DNA of 64,000 bases from a bacterium (GCA_965261085.1 OZ253442.1:2048001-2112000), one strand, 5' to 3'. Counted from the first letter of the stretch, positions 33,905-41,796 are shown. Notes: generated from the sequence alone by a model not told the origin. Translations and numbers: made by a program.

Positions 33905-34121
33905 CACCCCCCACGCATCAGCCGTCGCACAAACCGCTCGGCTTCTGCTACTCCCCCTCAAGGGGGGAGTGATTTTGGAATTTTCCTTGTTGGGATTTGA
34001 TCCGCTCGGTTGGAAACCCTCATTCTTTAATTGTCATTGACCCGCATTGGGAATCACTCCCCCCTTGAGGGGGAGTCAGTGAGGTAAGGGCGTAAGCCCG
34101 CAAGCGAACTGGTGGGGGGTG
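33905..34121. repeat. Two family A REP half-elements
   Basis: CTCCCCCTCAAGGGGGGAGTG near 33951 and CACTCCCCCCTTGAGGGGGAGTCAGTGAG near 34055. Confidence 0.75.
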
Positions 34122-34266
34122 AATCGCGACCGAGAAGGGAGCGATTGCTCCTTTTCAAGTCAGGCAGCCCCTCCTTCATCAATCGGGTTTGGCCCACACC
34201 CCCCGTTCATCCATACTCAAGCGGCGGATGGCGACGCGTAAGTCGCGCGCGAGTCGAAATAAGGGC

Positions 34267-34296
34267 TTGACAAGAATGGAAAATTTACCGCATTAT
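34267..34296 (+). promoter_or_regulatory. Putative sigma70 promoter at the start of the long lipoprotein leader
   Basis: TTGACA-N18-CATTAT; the -10 element is imperfect. Confidence 0.5.
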
Positions 34297-34475
34297 CCTA
34301 ATGCCGAGTAATTACACGAGAGCAGCCGCCCAAGGGACGCTCGCTGAATGCAGGACGGGCCTCATTCCAGAGGGCCGGAACGGGCGGGAACCACCTTGCG
34401 AAGTATGCACTCGCGTATGGCTTGGCGAAGCCCGGAAGACGACGACCCGGAAGGTTCCGGGCTTCAGTAGCAAAT

Positions 34476-35100
34476 ATCACGAGGCTAGAGGACTCGACTC
34501 ATCATGAAGCATGCCGCAAATCCCTCTCCAGTCTCGTGAATCAGTCAATCAGACGGCCCGGAGTTTTTCGTTCGCGCAAGCGGAGGCGCTCCGGCGCAGG
34601 GAAAGACGGTAAGCCCGGCGGGAGCCGGAGAAGCAGTAAATCACGAGGCTAGGCCAGAGGACTCGACCCGCGATGAAGCACGCCACGAATCCCCCTACCA
34701 GTCTCGTGAATTCACAGGCCATCGGCCCGGAGGCCCGGTTTCGCGCAAGCGGCGGCCCGGCCCCGGGAAAGATTGAAACCCGGGCAACGCCCGGATAAGG
34801 AGAATCGAAATTTCGGCTCGGGCCGGAGCGGTTTCATATCACGAGGCTGGAGGACTCAAACCATGATGATTCCTGAAAAGACTCCCACGCTAGTCTCGTG
34901 GATAAGCCGGCAACCGGCCCGGACTCGGCTGTCCGGGCCGGGGGCCTCGCGCTCCGGCGCCTGCCTGAAACGAATAAAAGCCCGATAACGGATGAAAGTC
35001 GGAAAGACAAACAGAAAGGAGGTTGGTTAAATCCAGACACTTCGGTTTTGTAGTAGCCAAAGTTCTTTAATAATATCACGAGACTAGGAGGACTCAAAAA
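34476..35100 (+). repeat. Tandem array of RBS-mimic hairpin units upstream of lipoprotein 1
   Basis: ATCACGAG(G/A)CT(A/G)...GAGGACTC at 34476, 34640, 34838 and 35075; inverted arms C(C/T)AGTCTCGTG at 34528, 34698 and 34890. Confidence 0.8.
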
Positions 35101-36633
35101 GTGATGAAACTCACCAGTAATAAAATCTTTTCATTCATGCTGGCGGCGGTGTTTGCGCTGACGCTCGCCGGCTGCGGCGGCGGCGGCGGCGGTACGGCTG
35201 CGGTGGATCCGGATCCTCCGGTGGTGACGCCGGAGCCTACCCCGCAGGAGATGTGCGCGGCGGATGGCGGGCGGTTTGAAGACGACGGGTCGTGCACCTC
35301 GGCCGCCGATCTCGAGACAGAACGTATAGCGGCGGAGGAGGCGGCAGCGGACAAAGTAGCAGATGCTACGAAATCGGCCGGTACGAAAGAAGAGGCCATC
35401 GGCGACGAGGCCGAAAGCGACGGTGCTGGCGGTCTCGGCGGCGCTACCGCTACTGCTCTCGACATCGAACACAAAGACGGCGCTGTGTCGATCGCGGTCA
35501 GCAGAGGCACCGGCGATGATAAGGTGGATTTCATGTCGGCCATGGATCTGACCGGCGTGGATGGCAGCACAGGCAGCATGAACTTGCTCGGCCCCAATGA
35601 TGACGACGTGACGGAAATCGCTATCGTCTACACCGACATCGACACGCCCACGCCCACGAAGTTCGGGGATGAGGGCACGGATGTCACGCTGAACGCCAAC
35701 CCTAAAACCACTAACGGCGAAGACTTCCAATCTGTCACTATCATCAATGATGATTTGGCGAAGATAGCGACGGATGGCATTACCGCTACAGGTGCTGGTG
35801 AGATCACTGTCCTGGCGGCAGTCGAGGACAACGACCAAACGGCGGATGTGGATGAGACCGTTGCGGCGTTTGAAACCGATGCCACCTTCGACGGCGCGGA
35901 TGGCAAATTGAAGTGCGCCCGCGACACCAACTGCATGGTCACGCTCGACGCGGACGGCAAGATAACTGATTTCAGCGCCGGATGGGAGTTCACACCCGCC
36001 GATGGCGCTAAGATCGACGTGGAGGACACTGACTACCTCTGGTACGGCGCCTGGCTGATGAAGACGGCGCAAGATGATGGCTCGGATGAATACAACCAGG
36101 TCGAGACCTTCGCGGATTCGACGCTTGTTGAGGCGAACAACGTTGGTAATGTCGATGGCAGCGCGGAATATAAAGGCGGCGCGGCAGGCGTGTACGTGAG
36201 AAACGTGTACGTACCATCAACTACGGGTGAGCAGAAACTCGACTATGCCAACTCCGGCCACTTCACGGCGAACGTCAATTTGACGGCGACCTTCGGTCAG
36301 ATGAACGCAGAGGGTTGTACTGGTGCTAACTGCGGCACCATCGCTCCCAACTTGATCAACACCGTAAGCGGAACCATCGACAACTTCAGCTTGTCCGGCG
36401 GCGAGGATGCGAGCGGCTGGGGCGTGGATGTGGCAGCCGGTATCAACGGCGCTGATCTTGAGAACGGAACGGCCAAGGGCGGTGGAGGTGATGATGGGTC
36501 GATTTCCGGAAACTTCCGCGGTACCGATACCGATGATGACGGTGCCATCGCGCCGAAAGCTCTGGTCGGCGAGTTCAACGCCGAGTTCACGAACGGCTCC
36601 GTGGCCGGTGGTTACGGTGCGAGAAGGCAGTAG
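35101..36633 (+). CDS. Surface lipoprotein 1 with a TbpB/Slam-substrate-like C-terminal beta-barrel
   Basis: Lipobox LAGC followed by poly-Gly; DYLWYGAWL, GSAEYKGGAAGVY, FTANVNLTATFG and terminal GSVAGGYGARRQ; RBS AGGAGG. Confidence 0.8.
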   Translation: MMKLTSNKIFSFMLAAVFALTLAGCGGGGGGTAAVDPDPPVVTPEPTPQEMCAADGGRFEDDGSCTSAADLETERIAAEEAAADKVADATKSAGTKEEAIGDEAESDGAGGLGGATATALDIEHKDGAVSIAVSRGTGDDKVDFMSAMDLTGVDGSTGSMNLLGPNDDDVTEIAIVYTDIDTPTPTKFGDEGTDVTLNANPKTTNGEDFQSVTIINDDLAKIATDGITATGAGEITVLAAVEDNDQTADVDETVAAFETDATFDGADGKLKCARDTNCMVTLDADGKITDFSAGWEFTPADGAKIDVEDTDYLWYGAWLMKTAQDDGSDEYNQVETFADSTLVEANNVGNVDGSAEYKGGAAGVYVRNVYVPSTTGEQKLDYANSGHFTANVNLTATFGQMNAEGCTGANCGTIAPNLINTVSGTIDNFSLSGGEDASGWGVDVAAGINGADLENGTAKGGGGDDGSISGNFRGTDTDDDGAIAPKALVGEFNAEFTNGSVAGGYGARRQ

Positions 36634-36651
36634 AAACAGAACAGAGCAAGA

Positions 36652-36696
36652 CGCCTGTGGTCTCGGGGCTTGACGATGAGCCCCGGGGCCGGGGCG
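36652..36696 (+). other. 3' stem-loop after lipoprotein 1, no U-tract
   Basis: GGTCTCGGGGCT...AGCCCCGGGGCC with G-U pairs on the + strand; conserved after lipoprotein 2. Confidence 0.6.
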
Positions 36697-36748
36697 AACC
36701 TAACAAGAAAGAAAAGGGGATTGCAAAGCAAGGCGAGTGACGCATTTT

Positions 36749-36948
36749 GGGGGTTACTCATTGGTTGCTCTCTATCGTCGGGAGCAAATTTACCGACCCA
36801 TGCTACAGAGTTTGAGTCCTCTCGGTGTGGGGAGGGAATAATGAGTAACCCCCACCTCTTCGCTATACCCGGTTTCCCCAAGTTTGGCAAGCTCAGGTTG
36901 GATTGATTCACAGAGGCGGTCCCGAGAGAAGGGGCCGCCTTTTGTTTT
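36749..36948 (+). ncRNA. Putative structured RNA containing an anti-RBS segment
   Basis: Perfect 14-bp closing stem (36749-62 with 36840-53), two internal hairpins with G-U pairs, and an intrinsic terminator. Confidence 0.6.
36914..36948 (+). terminator. Intrinsic terminator
   Basis: AGGCGGTCCC-loop-GGGGCCGCCT followed by TTTGTTTT. Confidence 0.8.
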
Positions 36949-37004
36949 GGTGTGGGGAAGAATGCAAACGCTCCCGCATTGGTCTCGGCAAACGCTCCTT
37001 TCTC

Positions 37005-37196
37005 GGGGTTGTTGAAAAAGACCCCTTTTTAGAGACTAGAGGGGACACCCCTTTCGACTGGTAAAAGCAACCCCCCTGTCCCCCCTTGTCAGGGGGGCTT
37101 TTCTTCCACCCCCTCGTCGGGGGGCATCGCCTTTACCCCCCTGACAAGGGGGGACAGGGGGGTTGCTCCCTTGACAAAGGCTTTTTCAACAACCCC
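37005..37196. mobile_element. MITE with IS1182-type ends enclosing a REP pair
   Basis: GGGGTTGTTGAAAAAG...CTTTTTCAACAACCCC terminal inverted repeats matching the IS at 40275; internal palindrome CCCCCTGTCCCCCCTTGTCAGGGGG. Confidence 0.75.
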
Positions 37197-37363
37197 TCTT
37201 CGGTCAGAATTGACCCTCAAGGGGGGAGTGAATTTCCTCTCTCATCAATCGGCAAACGCTCTCGCATTGGTCGCGTCAAACACTCATTCATCAATCGTGT
37301 TTGACCTTCATCGGTCGGAAGAATTCCACCCTGATCGGTCGCGTTTGCTCCTCATCGGTCGGA

Positions 37364-37832
37364 ATTGACGAAGCGCGCGATCTGTTCATATAGTAATGGA
37401 TGTCCCGAAGCGCCGGAGGACCCGTCGCCAAGGAGAAACGCATGACGACGTATGAATACCTGAACCTCACCGCCTCCTACGGCGGCCTTGCGCTGATCTG
37501 CTACGGCATCCGCGTCATGGCGAAGGGCGCCGAAATGCGCGCGACCGACTCCGAGCGCAAGCACGAGCAGGTGATGACCGCATCCGAGCGCAGGCACGAG
37601 GAGTCGATGACGTCCCTGCGCGAACTCATCGACGGGCAGGCGGAAAGCCGCATGGCCCTGCGCAAACTCATCGAGCGAACCGGATAGCGAACCACAAGGT
37701 CGTCATTCCGGCGCATGCCGGTGGCGACCGTGAGGTTGACCAGAACCAAAGTGGAACGTCCGGCGTCGGGCGTTTCTGCACCCCGGATAAAACGCTCCGG
37801 GATGACGAGCCAAACCTTTATCCGCCGCAGCA
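37364..37832 (+). repeat. Duplicated ~470-bp cassette (promoter, small gene, REP), copy A
   Basis: Nearly identical to 41965-42434; includes TTGACG-N18-TATAGT at 37365-37394. Confidence 0.9.
37442..37687 (+). CDS. Small protein with charged repeats (copy 2)
   Basis: 81 aa from MTTYEY; RBS AAGGAG; paralog of 28550-28828. Confidence 0.75.
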   Translation: MTTYEYLNLTASYGGLALICYGIRVMAKGAEMRATDSERKHEQVMTASERRHEESMTSLRELIDGQAESRMALRKLIERTG

Positions 37833-37870
37833 AACTCTCTCGCGTTTGACGCGTTTGATCTCACTCGGTT

Positions 37871-37900
37871 CCCTGCCGGAACCGGCAGGGGGCTTTTTTT
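37871..37900 (+). terminator. Intrinsic terminator upstream of lipoprotein 2
   Basis: CCCTGCCGG-AA-CCGGCAGGG followed by GGCTTTTTTT. Confidence 0.7.
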
Positions 37901-37966
37901 GCTCGAACGCGAGTGAGGAGAGGGGGTCAATATGTTATTATAACGAGACCAGAGGGGACTCAAAAA

Positions 37967-40126
37967 GTGATGAAACTCACCGGTAATAAAATCTTTTCAT
38001 TCATGTGGGCGGCGGCCTTCGCGCTGACGCTGGCCGGCTGCGGCGGCGGCGGTGGTGGTGGTGCGTCGGACGATACCATGACGACACCGTCAGTACCCGA
38101 CCAGGCGATCATGGCGGCGAAAGATGCGGCGGCGGAAGCTGCGGCAGAGGCTACGGCGGCGCTGAATGCAGCGAAGGAGGCCGTAGACGGCGCCAGTGCA
38201 GACCAGGATTATGACGCCGTGCACTACGCTCTCGCCACTACCGAACTGGGCAAGGCCAAGGATGCCAAGGCGGCTGCGGAGGCCGCACAGGCGGACGCCG
38301 AGATGTTCGCCAAGGCGGTTGCGGATGCCAAGAAGGCTGCGCCTCCGGCTTCTTCGGATCAGGCCGAGTTTGAAGCAAGGCTGGCCCTGGCGGATGCCAA
38401 GACTGCAACGGCGAGCGCCGTAGCGGCGGCGGGTGCGGCCGTGACGGCGACGAAGGCGGCTGCGAGAGCGGCGGCGGCTGCGGTGACCAAGGCGACGGCG
38501 GCAAGGACGAATGCCGCTGGAGCCGAGGCCGCGAAGAAGGCGGCGGATCAAGCGGCGAAGGACGCGGCGGCCGCCAAGAAGACGGCGGATGCGGCGAAGG
38601 CCGCCGTAGCGAAACTCAATGATGACGGCATCGGCACCAGGAAGGGTGCTGCGGACCTCGAGTCGGCTGCGGACACTGCTGCGGGCAATGCAGCCACCGC
38701 CATGAGGAAGGCGAATGAAGCCAAGGCGGCTGCCGAAAAGGCGCGGGACGATGCCATGGCTGCGGCTAACACGCACGTTCTGGGCTTGTTCAAGGCGGCG
38801 AATGGAGACGATATTACATTTGTCGGCAGTGAAGATGATGCGGATATCGCCTCTGCTCTCGGAAGAGCGAAATCCGCTCGGAGAAAGGCCGTTATCGAAG
38901 CAATCGGAACAGCGGCGGACGCCCGACTCGGAGCTGAAGTTGTGATTAAGTGGCCTGCCGACGTGGCAGCCAATCCTGATGCTGCACCACCTACGGAGGC
39001 CGTGCCCGGAGCGCTTTCGATTGAGGTCATCCCCACCGGCGGCTCTGAGATTCCCTTCCGCGCGGAAGCCGTGGAGGATGACCCTTTTACGGATCGAGAC
39101 GAGTCCATGTCGAAGACGGCCACCAAGATCGACGGGTTGCCCGGCTTCAAACACGGGTATGCAGTTTCGGATGGCGGGTCCCATACAATCGTCTTCACCG
39201 ACAAGGAACAGTCGACTCCGGCCGTTCCGGAGAAGACCGTCACCTTGACCTTAGATAACCGGCCCGTGACTGCTTCTCGGGTTGTCCTGCCGGAAGGTGC
39301 AACCACTCTTTCAAACGCCACCTACGATCATGACGGTGACCCGGATACGTTTGGGGTTACAGCCACATTCACGTGTGGTTCAACCAACCCGAGTGATTGC
39401 TCGTTTTCAATTCAAGACGGGAAACTGACATCTCTTGTTGGATATGTAGTTGATGTCTCTGTAACCGATTTTCTACTAGCTGCCGCAAAAGATGGAGTAG
39501 ATGATAATGACTACCTCGCCTTCGGCGTCTGGCTGAGAGTCGACGAGGACGGCAACACGGATGGCGAGCTACCGGCCGTCGGCGTATTCGCAGACGGCGG
39601 AACGCCTTTCGCTACGTCTGCAGCTCTTATCGGTACGGCGACTTACCGGGGCGCTGCTACGGGCGTTTATACCCAGGGAAGCGCGGTTGATTACTTCCAA
39701 GGCAGCGCCACCTTGACGGCCAACTTCGGCACGAAGCCCGAGATGGGTGAAGACGACATGATGGGAGCCATCACCGGCATGATTCACGACATCGTGGCGG
39801 GTGGTGTTTCCATGCGCGATGTTATTCTCCTGAACGCTGATTTTACGAATGCTGATGGTAAGCCCGTGGATAACATTACTGCGGCAGGCGGCTTCACCGG
39901 AATGGCCCGCATGGGCGCGCCCACCGTGACAGGCGACGTGGCCTCGCACCCCTACAACGGCGCATGGGGCGGGCAGTTCTACGGTCCGGCTGCGGATGAA
40001 GACGCGACAGGCGTAGATGCCCTTCCGCCTGCGGTTGCCGGCGCGTTCGGCGTGACCGGCGCCACGGGTGAAGGCGATGCCGCCGTCACCAGAAGTTACG
40101 TGGGCGCGTTCGGCGCGCGCAGGTAG
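37967..40126 (+). CDS. Surface lipoprotein 2 with an Ala-rich stalk and TbpB-like C-terminal barrel
   Basis: Signal peptide nearly identical to lipoprotein 1 (LAGC + poly-Gly); DYLAFGVWL, GTATYRGAATGVY, ATLTANFG and terminal YVGAFGARR. Confidence 0.8.
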   Translation: MMKLTGNKIFSFMWAAAFALTLAGCGGGGGGGASDDTMTTPSVPDQAIMAAKDAAAEAAAEATAALNAAKEAVDGASADQDYDAVHYALATTELGKAKDAKAAAEAAQADAEMFAKAVADAKKAAPPASSDQAEFEARLALADAKTATASAVAAAGAAVTATKAAARAAAAAVTKATAARTNAAGAEAAKKAADQAAKDAAAAKKTADAAKAAVAKLNDDGIGTRKGAADLESAADTAAGNAATAMRKANEAKAAAEKARDDAMAAANTHVLGLFKAANGDDITFVGSEDDADIASALGRAKSARRKAVIEAIGTAADARLGAEVVIKWPADVAANPDAAPPTEAVPGALSIEVIPTGGSEIPFRAEAVEDDPFTDRDESMSKTATKIDGLPGFKHGYAVSDGGSHTIVFTDKEQSTPAVPEKTVTLTLDNRPVTASRVVLPEGATTLSNATYDHDGDPDTFGVTATFTCGSTNPSDCSFSIQDGKLTSLVGYVVDVSVTDFLLAAAKDGVDDNDYLAFGVWLRVDEDGNTDGELPAVGVFADGGTPFATSAALIGTATYRGAATGVYTQGSAVDYFQGSATLTANFGTKPEMGEDDMMGAITGMIHDIVAGGVSMRDVILLNADFTNADGKPVDNITAAGGFTGMARMGAPTVTGDVASHPYNGAWGGQFYGPAADEDATGVDALPPAVAGAFGVTGATGEGDAAVTRSYVGAFGARR

Positions 40127-40274: not shown

Positions 40275-41796
40275 GGGGTTGTTGAAAAACCCCTGACTCT
40301 ATGCTTGGATGTATGGATATTACGCGCCCGAGAAGGGAATATCCGCGATGTTGGGACGCAAGAACCGCGCCCAGATGGATTTGTTCATCACCGGTTCGCT
40401 GGAGAGGTTGATTCCCGAGGATCACATATTGGCCCGCGTGAACCGCGTTCTGGACCTGAGTTGGCTGCGCGAGGAAGTGGCGGATTGTTATTGCGCGGAC
40501 AACGGCCGTCCTGGGATCGACCCCGAAGTGGCGGTTCGGTTGATGTTGGCGGGCCTTCTGCTGGGGTTCGTGCACGACCGTCGGTTGATGCGCGAGGCGC
40601 AGGTGAACATCGCGATCCGGTGGTTCATCGGTTACGGGCTGGAGGATCGGCTGCCGGATCATTCGAGCCTGACGCGGATACGGCAGCGCTGGGGGGAGGC
40701 CCGGTTCCGGGAGATATTCCGCCGCACGGTCCGTGCGTGCCTGGATGCGAAGGTGGCCAAGGCCGAAGTCGTGCACGTGGACGCCTCATTGATCCGCGCG
40801 GACGTGAGTTGGGAGAGTCTGGTGGAGCGTCACGTGGACGAGGTGATAGCGGAGAACCCCGTCGAGGAGGAGGCCGGGAAGAAGGGTGGAGGAGGCCGCC
40901 GTGGCGGGGGTTCCGGGAAGGTGAGCCGGACGGACCCGGACGCGCGGCTGGCGAGAACGGGCGGGGGATTCGAGCCGAGCTACAAGCAGCACGCTGTGGT
41001 GGACGACACGCGCGGGGTGGTGCTCGACGTATCGGTGACGGAGGGTACGGTGAACGAGCGTGAGGTGCTCGAATCGCAGGTGGAAGCGGTATGCGAGGTA
41101 TCGGGGCGCGCGCCCGCGATGGTGACGGCGGACTCTGGCTACGCCTACTCGAAGGTCTACGCGGCCCTGGAGCGCCGGGGTGTGGCCGCGCTCATTCCGG
41201 CGAAGAGGGAACCCTCGCAGAGCCGTGTTCCGTTGCGCCTGTTCCGCTACGACGCGCGGCACGACATCGTGAAGTGTCCGCGCGGCAAGATACTGAGCCC
41301 CCGTCGGCCCGCAAAGGGGGGGCGTTATTATCGTTCGAAGACCCGTGATTGCGCGGGCTGCGCGCTTCGCGAGGATTGCCTGCCGAAGGCGTGGTCGAGC
41401 AAGGTGGTGTTGGTTCCGCATGCGTATCCGGCGCTGTTGCGCGCGCGCCGGCGCCATGCGCGATGGAGGGAGGAGGAGCGGCGGATGTACCGGCGTCATA
41501 TGTGGCGCTCGGAGGGCTACCACGGCGAGGCGAAGACCTGGCACGGGCTTGCGCGCGCGGTGCGGCGCGGTCTTGAGAACATGAAGATACAGTCCTACCT
41601 GACGGCGGCGGCGATCAACCTCAAGCGGCTCTCCGCCGCACTTGCTGCAAGGTTATTCGCCCTCTGGAGGGCCTGGTCGGCCCGGGAAGAGCCTCTGTGC
41701 GTCCATCGCGGCCTCGCAAGCTGCGCGGGCTTCCTGTCCGCCGCCGCGTGACCCTCCATACCGCCCGCTCCCGAAACCGGGTTATTCAACAACCCC
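40275..41796 (+). mobile_element. IS1182 family insertion sequence
   Basis: 18-bp terminal inverted repeats GGGGTTGTTGAA(A/T)AACCC; 5-bp target duplication TTCTC at 40270-74 and 41797-801. Confidence 0.9.
40348..41751 (+). CDS. IS1182 family transposase
   Basis: GRPGIDP, LPDHSSL, VDASLI, TDPDA, ADSGY, C..C.LR..C and INLKRL motifs. Confidence 0.92.
   Translation: MLGRKNRAQMDLFITGSLERLIPEDHILARVNRVLDLSWLREEVADCYCADNGRPGIDPEVAVRLMLAGLLLGFVHDRRLMREAQVNIAIRWFIGYGLEDRLPDHSSLTRIRQRWGEARFREIFRRTVRACLDAKVAKAEVVHVDASLIRADVSWESLVERHVDEVIAENPVEEEAGKKGGGGRRGGGSGKVSRTDPDARLARTGGGFEPSYKQHAVVDDTRGVVLDVSVTEGTVNEREVLESQVEAVCEVSGRAPAMVTADSGYAYSKVYAALERRGVAALIPAKREPSQSRVPLRLFRYDARHDIVKCPRGKILSPRRPAKGGRYYRSKTRDCAGCALREDCLPKAWSSKVVLVPHAYPALLRARRRHARWREEERRMYRRHMWRSEGYHGEAKTWHGLARAVRRGLENMKIQSYLTAAAINLKRLSAALAARLFALWRAWSAREEPLCVHRGLASCAGFLSAAA

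Follow-up and report, generated by a model that had tools for sequence, protein, structure and literature searches.

We describe a structured RNA element of ~106 nt that lies on the + strand, at positions 36748-36854 of the window (the whole 64,000-nt stretch of bacterial DNA analysed here), downstream of the gene for a putative surface lipoprotein (lipoprotein 1). The apical loop of this element is complementary to the ribosome binding site (RBS) of the genes that the element follows. In our view the best explanation, as yet unproven, is an anti-RBS element carried in the 3'UTR and acting in cis or among paralogues, and we put the probability of this reading at somewhat under one half (about 0.45). 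To our knowledge, only a handful of cases of regulation by bacterial 3'UTRs are known. Here a single covarying 3'UTR structure recurs throughout a whole gene family, its loop matches the RBS of that same family, and the encoded surface proteins are those most likely to face the sponge host.

Structure and strand of the element

The element is a structured RNA, and its structure is strongly supported. It folds as a three-way junction on the + strand, made of a closing stem of 14-16 bp (P1), a hairpin (P2) and a long hairpin (P3). In P1, GGGGGTTACTCATT (36749-36762) and AATGAGTAACCCCC (36840-36853) are perfect 14-nt complements, and the minimum-energy fold extends the stem to 16 pairs (36748-36763 with 36839-36854). 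P2, also read from the folds, is formed by TTGCTCTC (36765-36772) and GGGAGCAA (36780-36787) and includes one U-G pair. Both the perfect 14-bp stem and this hairpin had been claimed in a preliminary description of the window, and both are present. A further hairpin proposed there, TACCGA/TCGGTG, can be drawn in the window sequence, but the 60 distinct copies compared below favour a different helix, namely P3 (36793-36794 and 36797-36804 with 36824-36831 and 36834-35, from folds and covariation). In these copies P3 consists of CC/GG and CCCAUGCU/GGUGUGGG, topped by an apical stem AGAG/CUCU (36807-36810 with 36819-36822, from the folds) and an 8-nt loop, UUUGAGUC.

The + strand fold has an energy of -87.7 kcal/mol (z -4.33; equalled by none of 200 shuffles), and the - strand fold a z of -3.50. 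For the comparison of structures, 77 matches representing 60 distinct sequences were aligned to a covariance model. In this alignment 93.9% of cells are paired, a share that drops to 41-56% if the 3' partners are shifted by 1-3 columns; compensatory changes on both sides are seen at 21 of the 31 pairs, with covariation in P1 and P3; and none of 500 shuffles matches any of five pairing measures, all figures that overstate independence, because the alignment is fitted to a model that favours pairing and the sequences are related. The sequence of P2 is not the same in all types; its columns are misaligned between sequence types in the model alignment (82.8% paired), and P2 was read by eye for each type.

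Pairs of the G-U kind are frequent (at one pair of P3, UG is present in 27 of the 60 sequences). Under the covariance model, sense copies reach 54-113 bits and antisense 25-36 bits, the window copy having 109.4 bits under model R1 (see below). The RNA is therefore assigned to the strand of the neighbouring genes, as had been claimed earlier, and a U-tailed, terminator-like hairpin agrees with this assignment. The compensatory and G-U changes together indicate selection at the RNA level. Element length differs between types (107, 109, 113 and 115 nt), which argues against a coding reading.

Copies, types and distribution

The covariance model R1 was built, after BLAST, from four copies in the genome that contains the window (hereafter the own genome, 4.27 Mb). 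It matches this genome in five sense copies: the one at 36748-36854 of the window (+ strand), a tandem pair at genome positions 765965-766071 and 766145-766253, a C-type copy at 1668687-1668799 (- strand) and a divergent copy at 254886-254990 (- strand). Among the 51 genomes of the phylum that were searched, matches were found in 16 of the 22 other genomes of the genus and in one of the 28 outside it. By rank, these 28 comprise other genera of the family (0/19), the rest of the order (0/2) and another family of the class (1/7), to which the single matching genome outside the genus, G042, belongs. Up to 16 matches occur in one genome, and there are more than 100 copies overall. Of four sequence types, A is the window-like one and the others are C, B and D; identical copies lie at several places in some genomes, with one set of five identical copies among them. 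The exact stem arms are found in public records of metagenome-assembled genomes, of which several carry the label Nitrospinota, and the RNA runs that contain parts of the locus are labelled as sponge metagenome. The element thus represents a many-copy family of sponge-associated Nitrospinota bacteria.

A scan with Rfam 15 at gathering thresholds gave no match in the whole window, and at E<=10 within 34000-38200 there was none on the element at 36748-36854; the Rfam check proposed in the preliminary description thus returned nothing relevant. A hit to archaeal RNase P on the opposite strand (36924-37138) touches only the terminator and is at chance level (E 4.6; 11 bits where the cut-off is 84). 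Our literature search found no paper on the 3' element or on non-coding RNAs of Nitrospinota. Neither Rfam nor the literature searched thus contains this family, which is a well-supported candidate for a new RNA family.

Partial repeats resembling the 3' half of the element (GGGAGGGAAUAAAUCAAACGCUC ... GCGUUUGACCCCCAGCC) lie at 36949-37010 and 37250-37370 of the window. Such repeats trail many copies elsewhere (for example L038, L049 and L054), sometimes in tandem.

Position behind lipoprotein operons

The stop codon of lipoprotein 1 (36633) is followed by the element and then by an intrinsic terminator on the + strand (36912-36948), which has a 12-pair stem with 8 G-C pairs and then TGTTTTGG; comparable hairpin and U-tract sequences trail other copies of the element. 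To place these copies, we examined 68 distinct places, made up of the best matches and 20 more picked by match length in five genomes. Among the distinct A- and C-type copies, 32 of 37 lie no more than 202 nt downstream of a co-oriented SLP-like (TbpB/NHBA-like lipoprotein) gene, where SLP-like means a long same-strand ORF ending in the family's C-terminal motif (...GAFGAHR, ...GAFGARKQ); 30 of these were counted by a script pattern and two (L020 and L090) by eye. The five copies that have no such gene are L087, L045, L046, L058 and L091. Given its place before a terminator and behind lipoprotein genes, we therefore regard the RNA as a 3'UTR element.

The usual unit is a two-gene operon with a long leader, gene 1 (MMFREKSI...LAGC), gene 2 (MKMLRY...SGC), the element and a terminator. 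The window shows a variant found once per genome, in which lipoprotein 1 (MKLTSNKIFSF...) stands alone and is followed by an A-type element. Four of five members of the genus that carry no element also have no homologue of lipoprotein 1 at E<=1e-5. At the own-genome locus 1668809-1670551 (L020), the lipoprotein upstream of the C-type copy loses its C-terminal motif after ...PGSVAGTFYV, which may reflect a frameshift or an assembly error.

The tandem pair at 765965-766253 of the own genome consists of a D and a B copy with no intact lipoprotein gene upstream. This pair is kept in at least seven other records, with syntenic loci at L031, L032, L035, L050, L051, L055 and L059, and is preceded by a TTGACA promoter and a 5' element of the kind found in lipoprotein operons. 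In two genomes (L032 and L035) the D copy lies 2 nt after a remnant of 64-65 codons ending in ...AFGTHRRR, which looks like a decayed lipoprotein C-terminus, and the locus is probably a relic operon that has kept its RNA ends. The loops of the B and D types are different (UUGGGUC and UGGAAUU), with the fold kept, and no targets for them were identified; the B-type candidate target GAGGACCCAA occurs twice in the genome, once upstream of a 94-aa ORF, which is no more than expected by chance.

The lipoprotein genes

Lipoprotein 1 (35101-36633, + strand) is an ORF of 510 aa with a lipobox (LAGC) and a poly-Gly linker. It belongs to no Pfam family, and Pfam and PDB sequence searches with the lipoproteins gave nothing above threshold. 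The fold search alone gave useful results. A model of the C-terminal 200 aa (pLDDT 75) resembles the barrels of NHBA, HpuA, TbpB, LbpB and fHbp (Foldseek E 2.5e-6 to 1e-3, TM 0.36-0.54). Matches to Pfam TbpB_B_D stay below threshold and are seen in 5 of 13 members, with a best E of 0.014. A Slam gene (PF04575, E 4.9e-25) follows a paralogue at own-genome 68718-67273, outside the window. Lipobox, barrel-like fold model and a Slam partner beside a paralogue are thus all found, as in Slam-type surface lipoproteins, and Slam-type lipoprotein systems are thereby documented in Nitrospinota. Lipoprotein 1 is a putative Slam-dependent surface lipoprotein, and the lipoproteins of the operons are TbpB/NHBA-like and probably Slam-exported. 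The own-genome locus 65674-68718 (L108) contains a lipoprotein of the family, two leader units, an RBS (GGAGGACTCACTCAATG) and then the Slam gene; no 3' element is found downstream of it.

Lipoprotein 2 (37967-40126, + strand) starts with GTG at 37967 or ATG at 37970 and has a weak TbpB_B_D match (E 0.19). It is a paralogue found in the own genome only, other genomes carrying one such gene each. The window scan finds a single element, and lipoprotein 2 has none of its own. Directly after lipoprotein 2 lies an IS transposase gene (40309-41748, DUF772 and DDE domains), and insertion of the IS may have displaced a 3' element of this gene.

Leader, promoter and transcription

The lipoprotein-1 transcript is likely to start from a sigma-70-like promoter on the + strand at 34267-34296 (TTGACA, 18 nt, CATTAT; 10 of 12 consensus positions). 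RNA-library contigs from three runs start at 34303, 34320 and 34330, a weak hint in the same direction, as contigs cannot map ends. Right after the promoter follows a 5' leader element (34303-34440, + strand) whose core, CUGAAU.CA.GACG ... GGCGGGAACC, is common to the own-genome regions 765560-765730 and 1672700-1673100. A second conserved structured element heads each locus that ends in the 3' element (window, L021, L020). Rfam gave no match to this leader element at E<=10 (window) or E<=1 (L002). In the window and at L021 and L020 it lies right after a TTGACA promoter, with the core CUGAAUACAAGACG ... AAUAGGCGGGAACCCAC in a long closing stem.

Three leader units follow at 34476-34930 (+ strand), each a long hairpin AUCACGAGGCU ... 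AGUCUCGUGRAU around an SD-like GAGGACUC and AUG, and such units are also present upstream of the orthologous gene in all five other genomes listed. The hairpins, of ~15 bp, bury an SD-like GAGGA and enclose short ORFs such as MKHAANPSPVS. Unit 3 has in its 3' arm the sequence CTAGTCTCGTG (34890-34900), which matches over 11 nt, as a perfect complement, CACGAGACTAG (35077-35087) shortly before the genuine SD. This suggests that alternative pairings may form in the leader.

The RNA data are assembled contigs, which give no strand, ends or level and may include DNA carry-over. One contig of run X18 (depth 214) spans 34421-35314, from the leader units into the first part of lipoprotein 1, and an X15 contig covers 36730-36911 with one mismatch (one of four RNA libraries). 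Runs X16, X17 and X18 gave no contig over the element, which is not a sign that the RNA is absent there. The contigs fit one transcript from ~34303 to the terminator, without proving it, and we infer that the element is co-transcribed with lipoprotein 1. Further upstream in the window, at 33917-34133, summed contig depth reaches 591; the many contigs behind this figure have just a 38-nt segment (33936-33973) in common, which is a short hairpin repeat and not specific to the locus.

Complementarity between the loop and the RBS

The anti-RBS segment (36811-36822, + strand) consists of the loop UUUGAGUC and the 3' strand of the apical stem, CCUC(U). Loop and CCUC together complement GAGGACUCAAA, the proposed target in the SD region of lipoprotein 1 (35088-35098, + strand), which is a perfect 11-nt complement of 36811-36821. 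The stretch GTTTGAGTCCTC is the exact complement of 12 nt at 34850-34861 (GAGGACTCAAAC) and of the 11 nt at 35088-35098 (GAGGACTCAAA), and it matches 37954-37964 (GGGGACTCAAA) as well as 34487-34497 and 34656-34666 (AGAGGACTCGA) with G-U pairs or a bulge. At 37954-37964 lies the RBS of lipoprotein 2, GGGGACUCAAA (+ strand), whose duplex with the apex of the element has an energy of -29.7 kcal/mol. All five complementary RBS-motif sites described earlier are therefore present in the sequence; they amount to about one independent match, because they are duplicates of one leader/RBS module.

Complementarity of this kind is rarely reached by chance in the window. Only 3 of 2000 dinucleotide shuffles of the element reach the 11-nt match to the initiation region of lipoprotein 1, and none of 1000 does as well by duplex energy when the 20-nt apex is compared with the 5' region of its own operon. 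For the C-type copy of the own genome the signal is marginal, with 19-38 of 1000 shuffles as good by apex duplex energy and 83 of 2000 by longest perfect run; by the latter measure, this copy and that of the window are the only ones to stand out. For G042, 5-20 of 1000 shuffles are as good by duplex energy, and the longest perfect run is not significant (782/2000). The divergent own-genome copy (254886-254990) has no RBS complementarity (257-340/1000 as good). The second genes of the operons have an unrelated RBS, AGGGGGCAAAUG, with no complementarity to the loop.

Both partners are strongly conserved. In 18 of 20 loci, the operon's first gene has the RBS word G[AG]GGACUC[AG], and GAGGACUCAAA is invariant in 11 of 11 lipoprotein-1 orthologues, with variable spacing to the start codon. 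On the side of the element, types A and C, G042 and the divergent own-genome copy all have the loop word UGAGUCCUC unaltered, while the flanking helices change. TCCT and TTG are among the best-conserved unpaired columns of the family, and the eight loop bases are unpaired with a probability of 0.91-0.99. The segment is thus conserved and largely exposed and, as the preliminary description held, complementary to the RBS motif; as to a 12-nt seed, its eight loop bases are free, but CCUC is locked in the 4-bp apical stem.

A related arrangement occurs in genome G021, where the leaders of three operons (L101, L103 and L104) carry GAGUCCUC(C/G), not AGGAGGUUA, ~55 nt upstream of the gene-1 RBS GGAGGACUC. 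A 9-bp hairpin sequestering the SD is predicted in all three (-19.2 to -19.5 kcal/mol). On these predicted folds, the G021 leaders represent an independent use of the same anti-RBS word.

Several observations limit this argument. There is no covariation between loop and RBS, both being nearly invariant (and fully so in orthologues), and lipoprotein 2, with its GGGG variant, has no orthologue elsewhere. The many co-occurrences of loop and RBS are not independent, because the operons are paralogues. In a genome-wide comparison of duplex energies (7-mer prefilter, 5571 seeded sites), unit 3 comes at about rank 17 and lipoprotein 2 at about rank 32; the target ranking that had been proposed as a check thus does not lift the RBS sites above background, many unrelated sites pairing as well, and a ranking by energy is uninformative on its own. 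With RNAcofold, no loop contact is predicted between the element and the initiation region of lipoprotein 1, in a method that cannot model contacts between a loop in a closed hairpin and a linear partner. It is also possible that a leader unit was once duplicated in part and in inverted orientation, and that the complementarity is what remains of this event.

Mode of action and alternative explanations

If the anti-RBS reading is correct, transcription would start at the promoter at about 34267-34296, cross the 800-nt leader and the gene, and stop at the terminator (36912-36948). Pairing would begin between the 8-nt apical loop, UUUGAGUC, and GACUCAAA, directly 3' of the Shine-Dalgarno core, and the duplex would then spread into CCUC/GAGG. 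Ribosome binding would be blocked, and a substrate for a double-strand RNase would possibly be made. The target would be the same mRNA, through contact between its 5' and 3' UTRs, or, once the element is processed, paralogous lipoprotein mRNAs with the common RBS. That the two segments pair, and that this affects expression, we infer.

The same RNA could instead be a structural module of the 3' end that blocks 3' exonucleases, guides processing or binds a protein, with no pairing to the RBS, a possible reading that we consider rather doubtful; conservation of the loop would then reflect a contact with a protein or within the tertiary structure, and an old inverted duplication would have left the match to the RBS behind. 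Most copies do sit just before terminators, no target has been proposed for several further conserved unpaired stretches (GUACC, GGGAA), and the loop UUUGA presumably resembles a T-loop. The alteration of the loop in the B and D types, which retain the fold, and the lack of complementarity in the divergent own-genome copy would also be expected of such a module. It does not readily account, however, for the retention of UGAGUCCUC in the A, C, divergent own-genome and G042 copies despite their changing neighbouring helices, for the reappearance of this word as a predicted cis anti-SD in the G021 leaders, or for the nominally significant pairing of the window and G042 elements to their own 5' regions.

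The preliminary description had proposed a trans-acting sRNA. A structured RNA with an exposed segment is indeed what we find, but a stand-alone gene, transcribed from a promoter of its own upstream of 36748 as far as the terminator at 36912-36948 and repressing all carriers of the RBS motif, is decidedly unlikely. The terminator after the element and the conserved loop, single-stranded as a seed should be (eight bases unpaired, four paired), would suit such a gene, and the gene-less tandem pair at 765965-766253, with its promoter and leader, suggests that some copies may be non-coding RNAs. Against this stand the genus-wide 3'UTR position of the family and its strict co-orientation with the upstream genes. 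A scan for the sigma-70 consensus finds no promoter-like site between the stop codon at 36633 and the element (36634-36748), and in other copies the element can follow the stop codon by as little as 9-26 nt, too close for a promoter to fit in between. The contigs are about as deep at the element (14.3) as over neighbouring parts of the mRNA, and not deeper, a weak point in the same direction. A 3'UTR element, possibly processed, fits better than an independently transcribed trans-acting sRNA.

A role at the DNA level, either as a miniature transposable element bounded by terminal inverted repeats of 14 bp or as a site of recombination or inversion at lipoprotein genes, was raised by the perfect inverted termini, by the multicopy nature of the element with identical copies at several places in some genomes, and by the 11-bp inverted match that flanks lipoprotein 1; conserved 5' and 3' flanks around variable genes would, in addition, favour gene conversion. 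We consider such a role highly improbable. The copies are not scattered, 32 of 37 lying directly behind SLP genes in one orientation, no direct repeats flank them (flanks read by eye), and the compensatory and G-U substitutions keep RNA pairing on one strand. No site-specific recombinase domain is encoded among 24 neighbouring ORFs; there is just the DDE transposase gene 3.4 kb downstream. Against the inversion that had been suggested as an alternative to the sRNA speak also the constant relative orientation of gene start and element in 10 of 10 other genomes and, weakly, the lack of an opposite-strand joint at 35088/36811 among the RNA contigs.

Returning to the anti-RBS element, one may speculate further on its action among paralogues. 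Because paralogous operons carry the same 3' anti-RBS RNA and the same 5' RBS, it is conceivable, though on balance unlikely, that transcripts of one operon silence the translation of others, an RNA-based limit on the number of variant surface lipoproteins displayed at once. According to this speculation, the repeated leader units would serve as decoy sites, and the tandem pair without an intact lipoprotein gene (765965-766253) would be a relic operon retained because it supplies a dedicated regulator RNA.

Relation to known systems

In the icaR mRNA of Staphylococcus aureus, an anti-SD motif in the long 3'UTR is described as pairing with the SD region of the same mRNA, blocking initiation and creating a substrate for RNase III (PMC3868564). 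As in that description, the motif reported here lies between stop codon and terminator and is complementary to an SD region of its own mRNA beyond chance (marginally, or not at all, in some copies). There is no sequence relationship between the two, and in the present family the motif is placed in the apical loop of a covarying three-way junction. The RNA is found behind up to 16 paralogous operons per genome, whose common RBS makes cross-talk in trans possible.

Enterobacterial sRNAs derived from 3'UTRs, such as CpxQ and SroC, likewise come from the 3' end of an mRNA, share its terminator and expose a short seed. In contrast to these, the proposed targets here belong to the parent gene family itself. 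The RNA thermosensor of meningococcal fHbp carries an anti-RBS in the 5' part of the same mRNA and concerns a Slam-type surface lipoprotein; in both systems a sequence pairs (here by prediction) with the RBS of such a gene, but in our case the anti-RBS lies in the 3'UTR, or ~55 nt upstream in the G021 leaders. REP and neisserial Correia elements are short multicopy sequences with terminal inverted repeats that are found in mRNA ends and can affect stability. Unlike them, the present family is fixed in position and orientation behind one gene family, is branched and covarying, and shows no target duplications.

If the pairing holds true, it would offer a testable model for how an uncultured symbiont coordinates or excludes the expression of variant surface lipoproteins. 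Whatever the mechanism, this is a candidate new RNA family with more than 100 copies and compensatory changes in 21 of 31 pairs.

Other features near the element

A G+C-rich perfect palindrome (CCCCCCTGTCCCCCCTTGTCAGGGGGG...) lies at 37060-37171 of the window and recurs elsewhere in the own genome, for example near 923164, 1075532, 3136624 and 3903283. Hits to Rfam microRNA models at 37062-37180 are spurious and arise from this palindromic repeat. Two apparent opposite-strand joints among the RNA contigs (34079/37120 and 37005/37194) lie in palindromic repeats and not at the proposed inversion sites. Between the element and lipoprotein 2, at 37400-37687, the window contains an ORF of 95 aa that belongs to no Pfam family and has a promoter-like site upstream (37365-37394). 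Contigs from all four RNA runs cover this ORF, almost over its full span in X15, X16 and X17.
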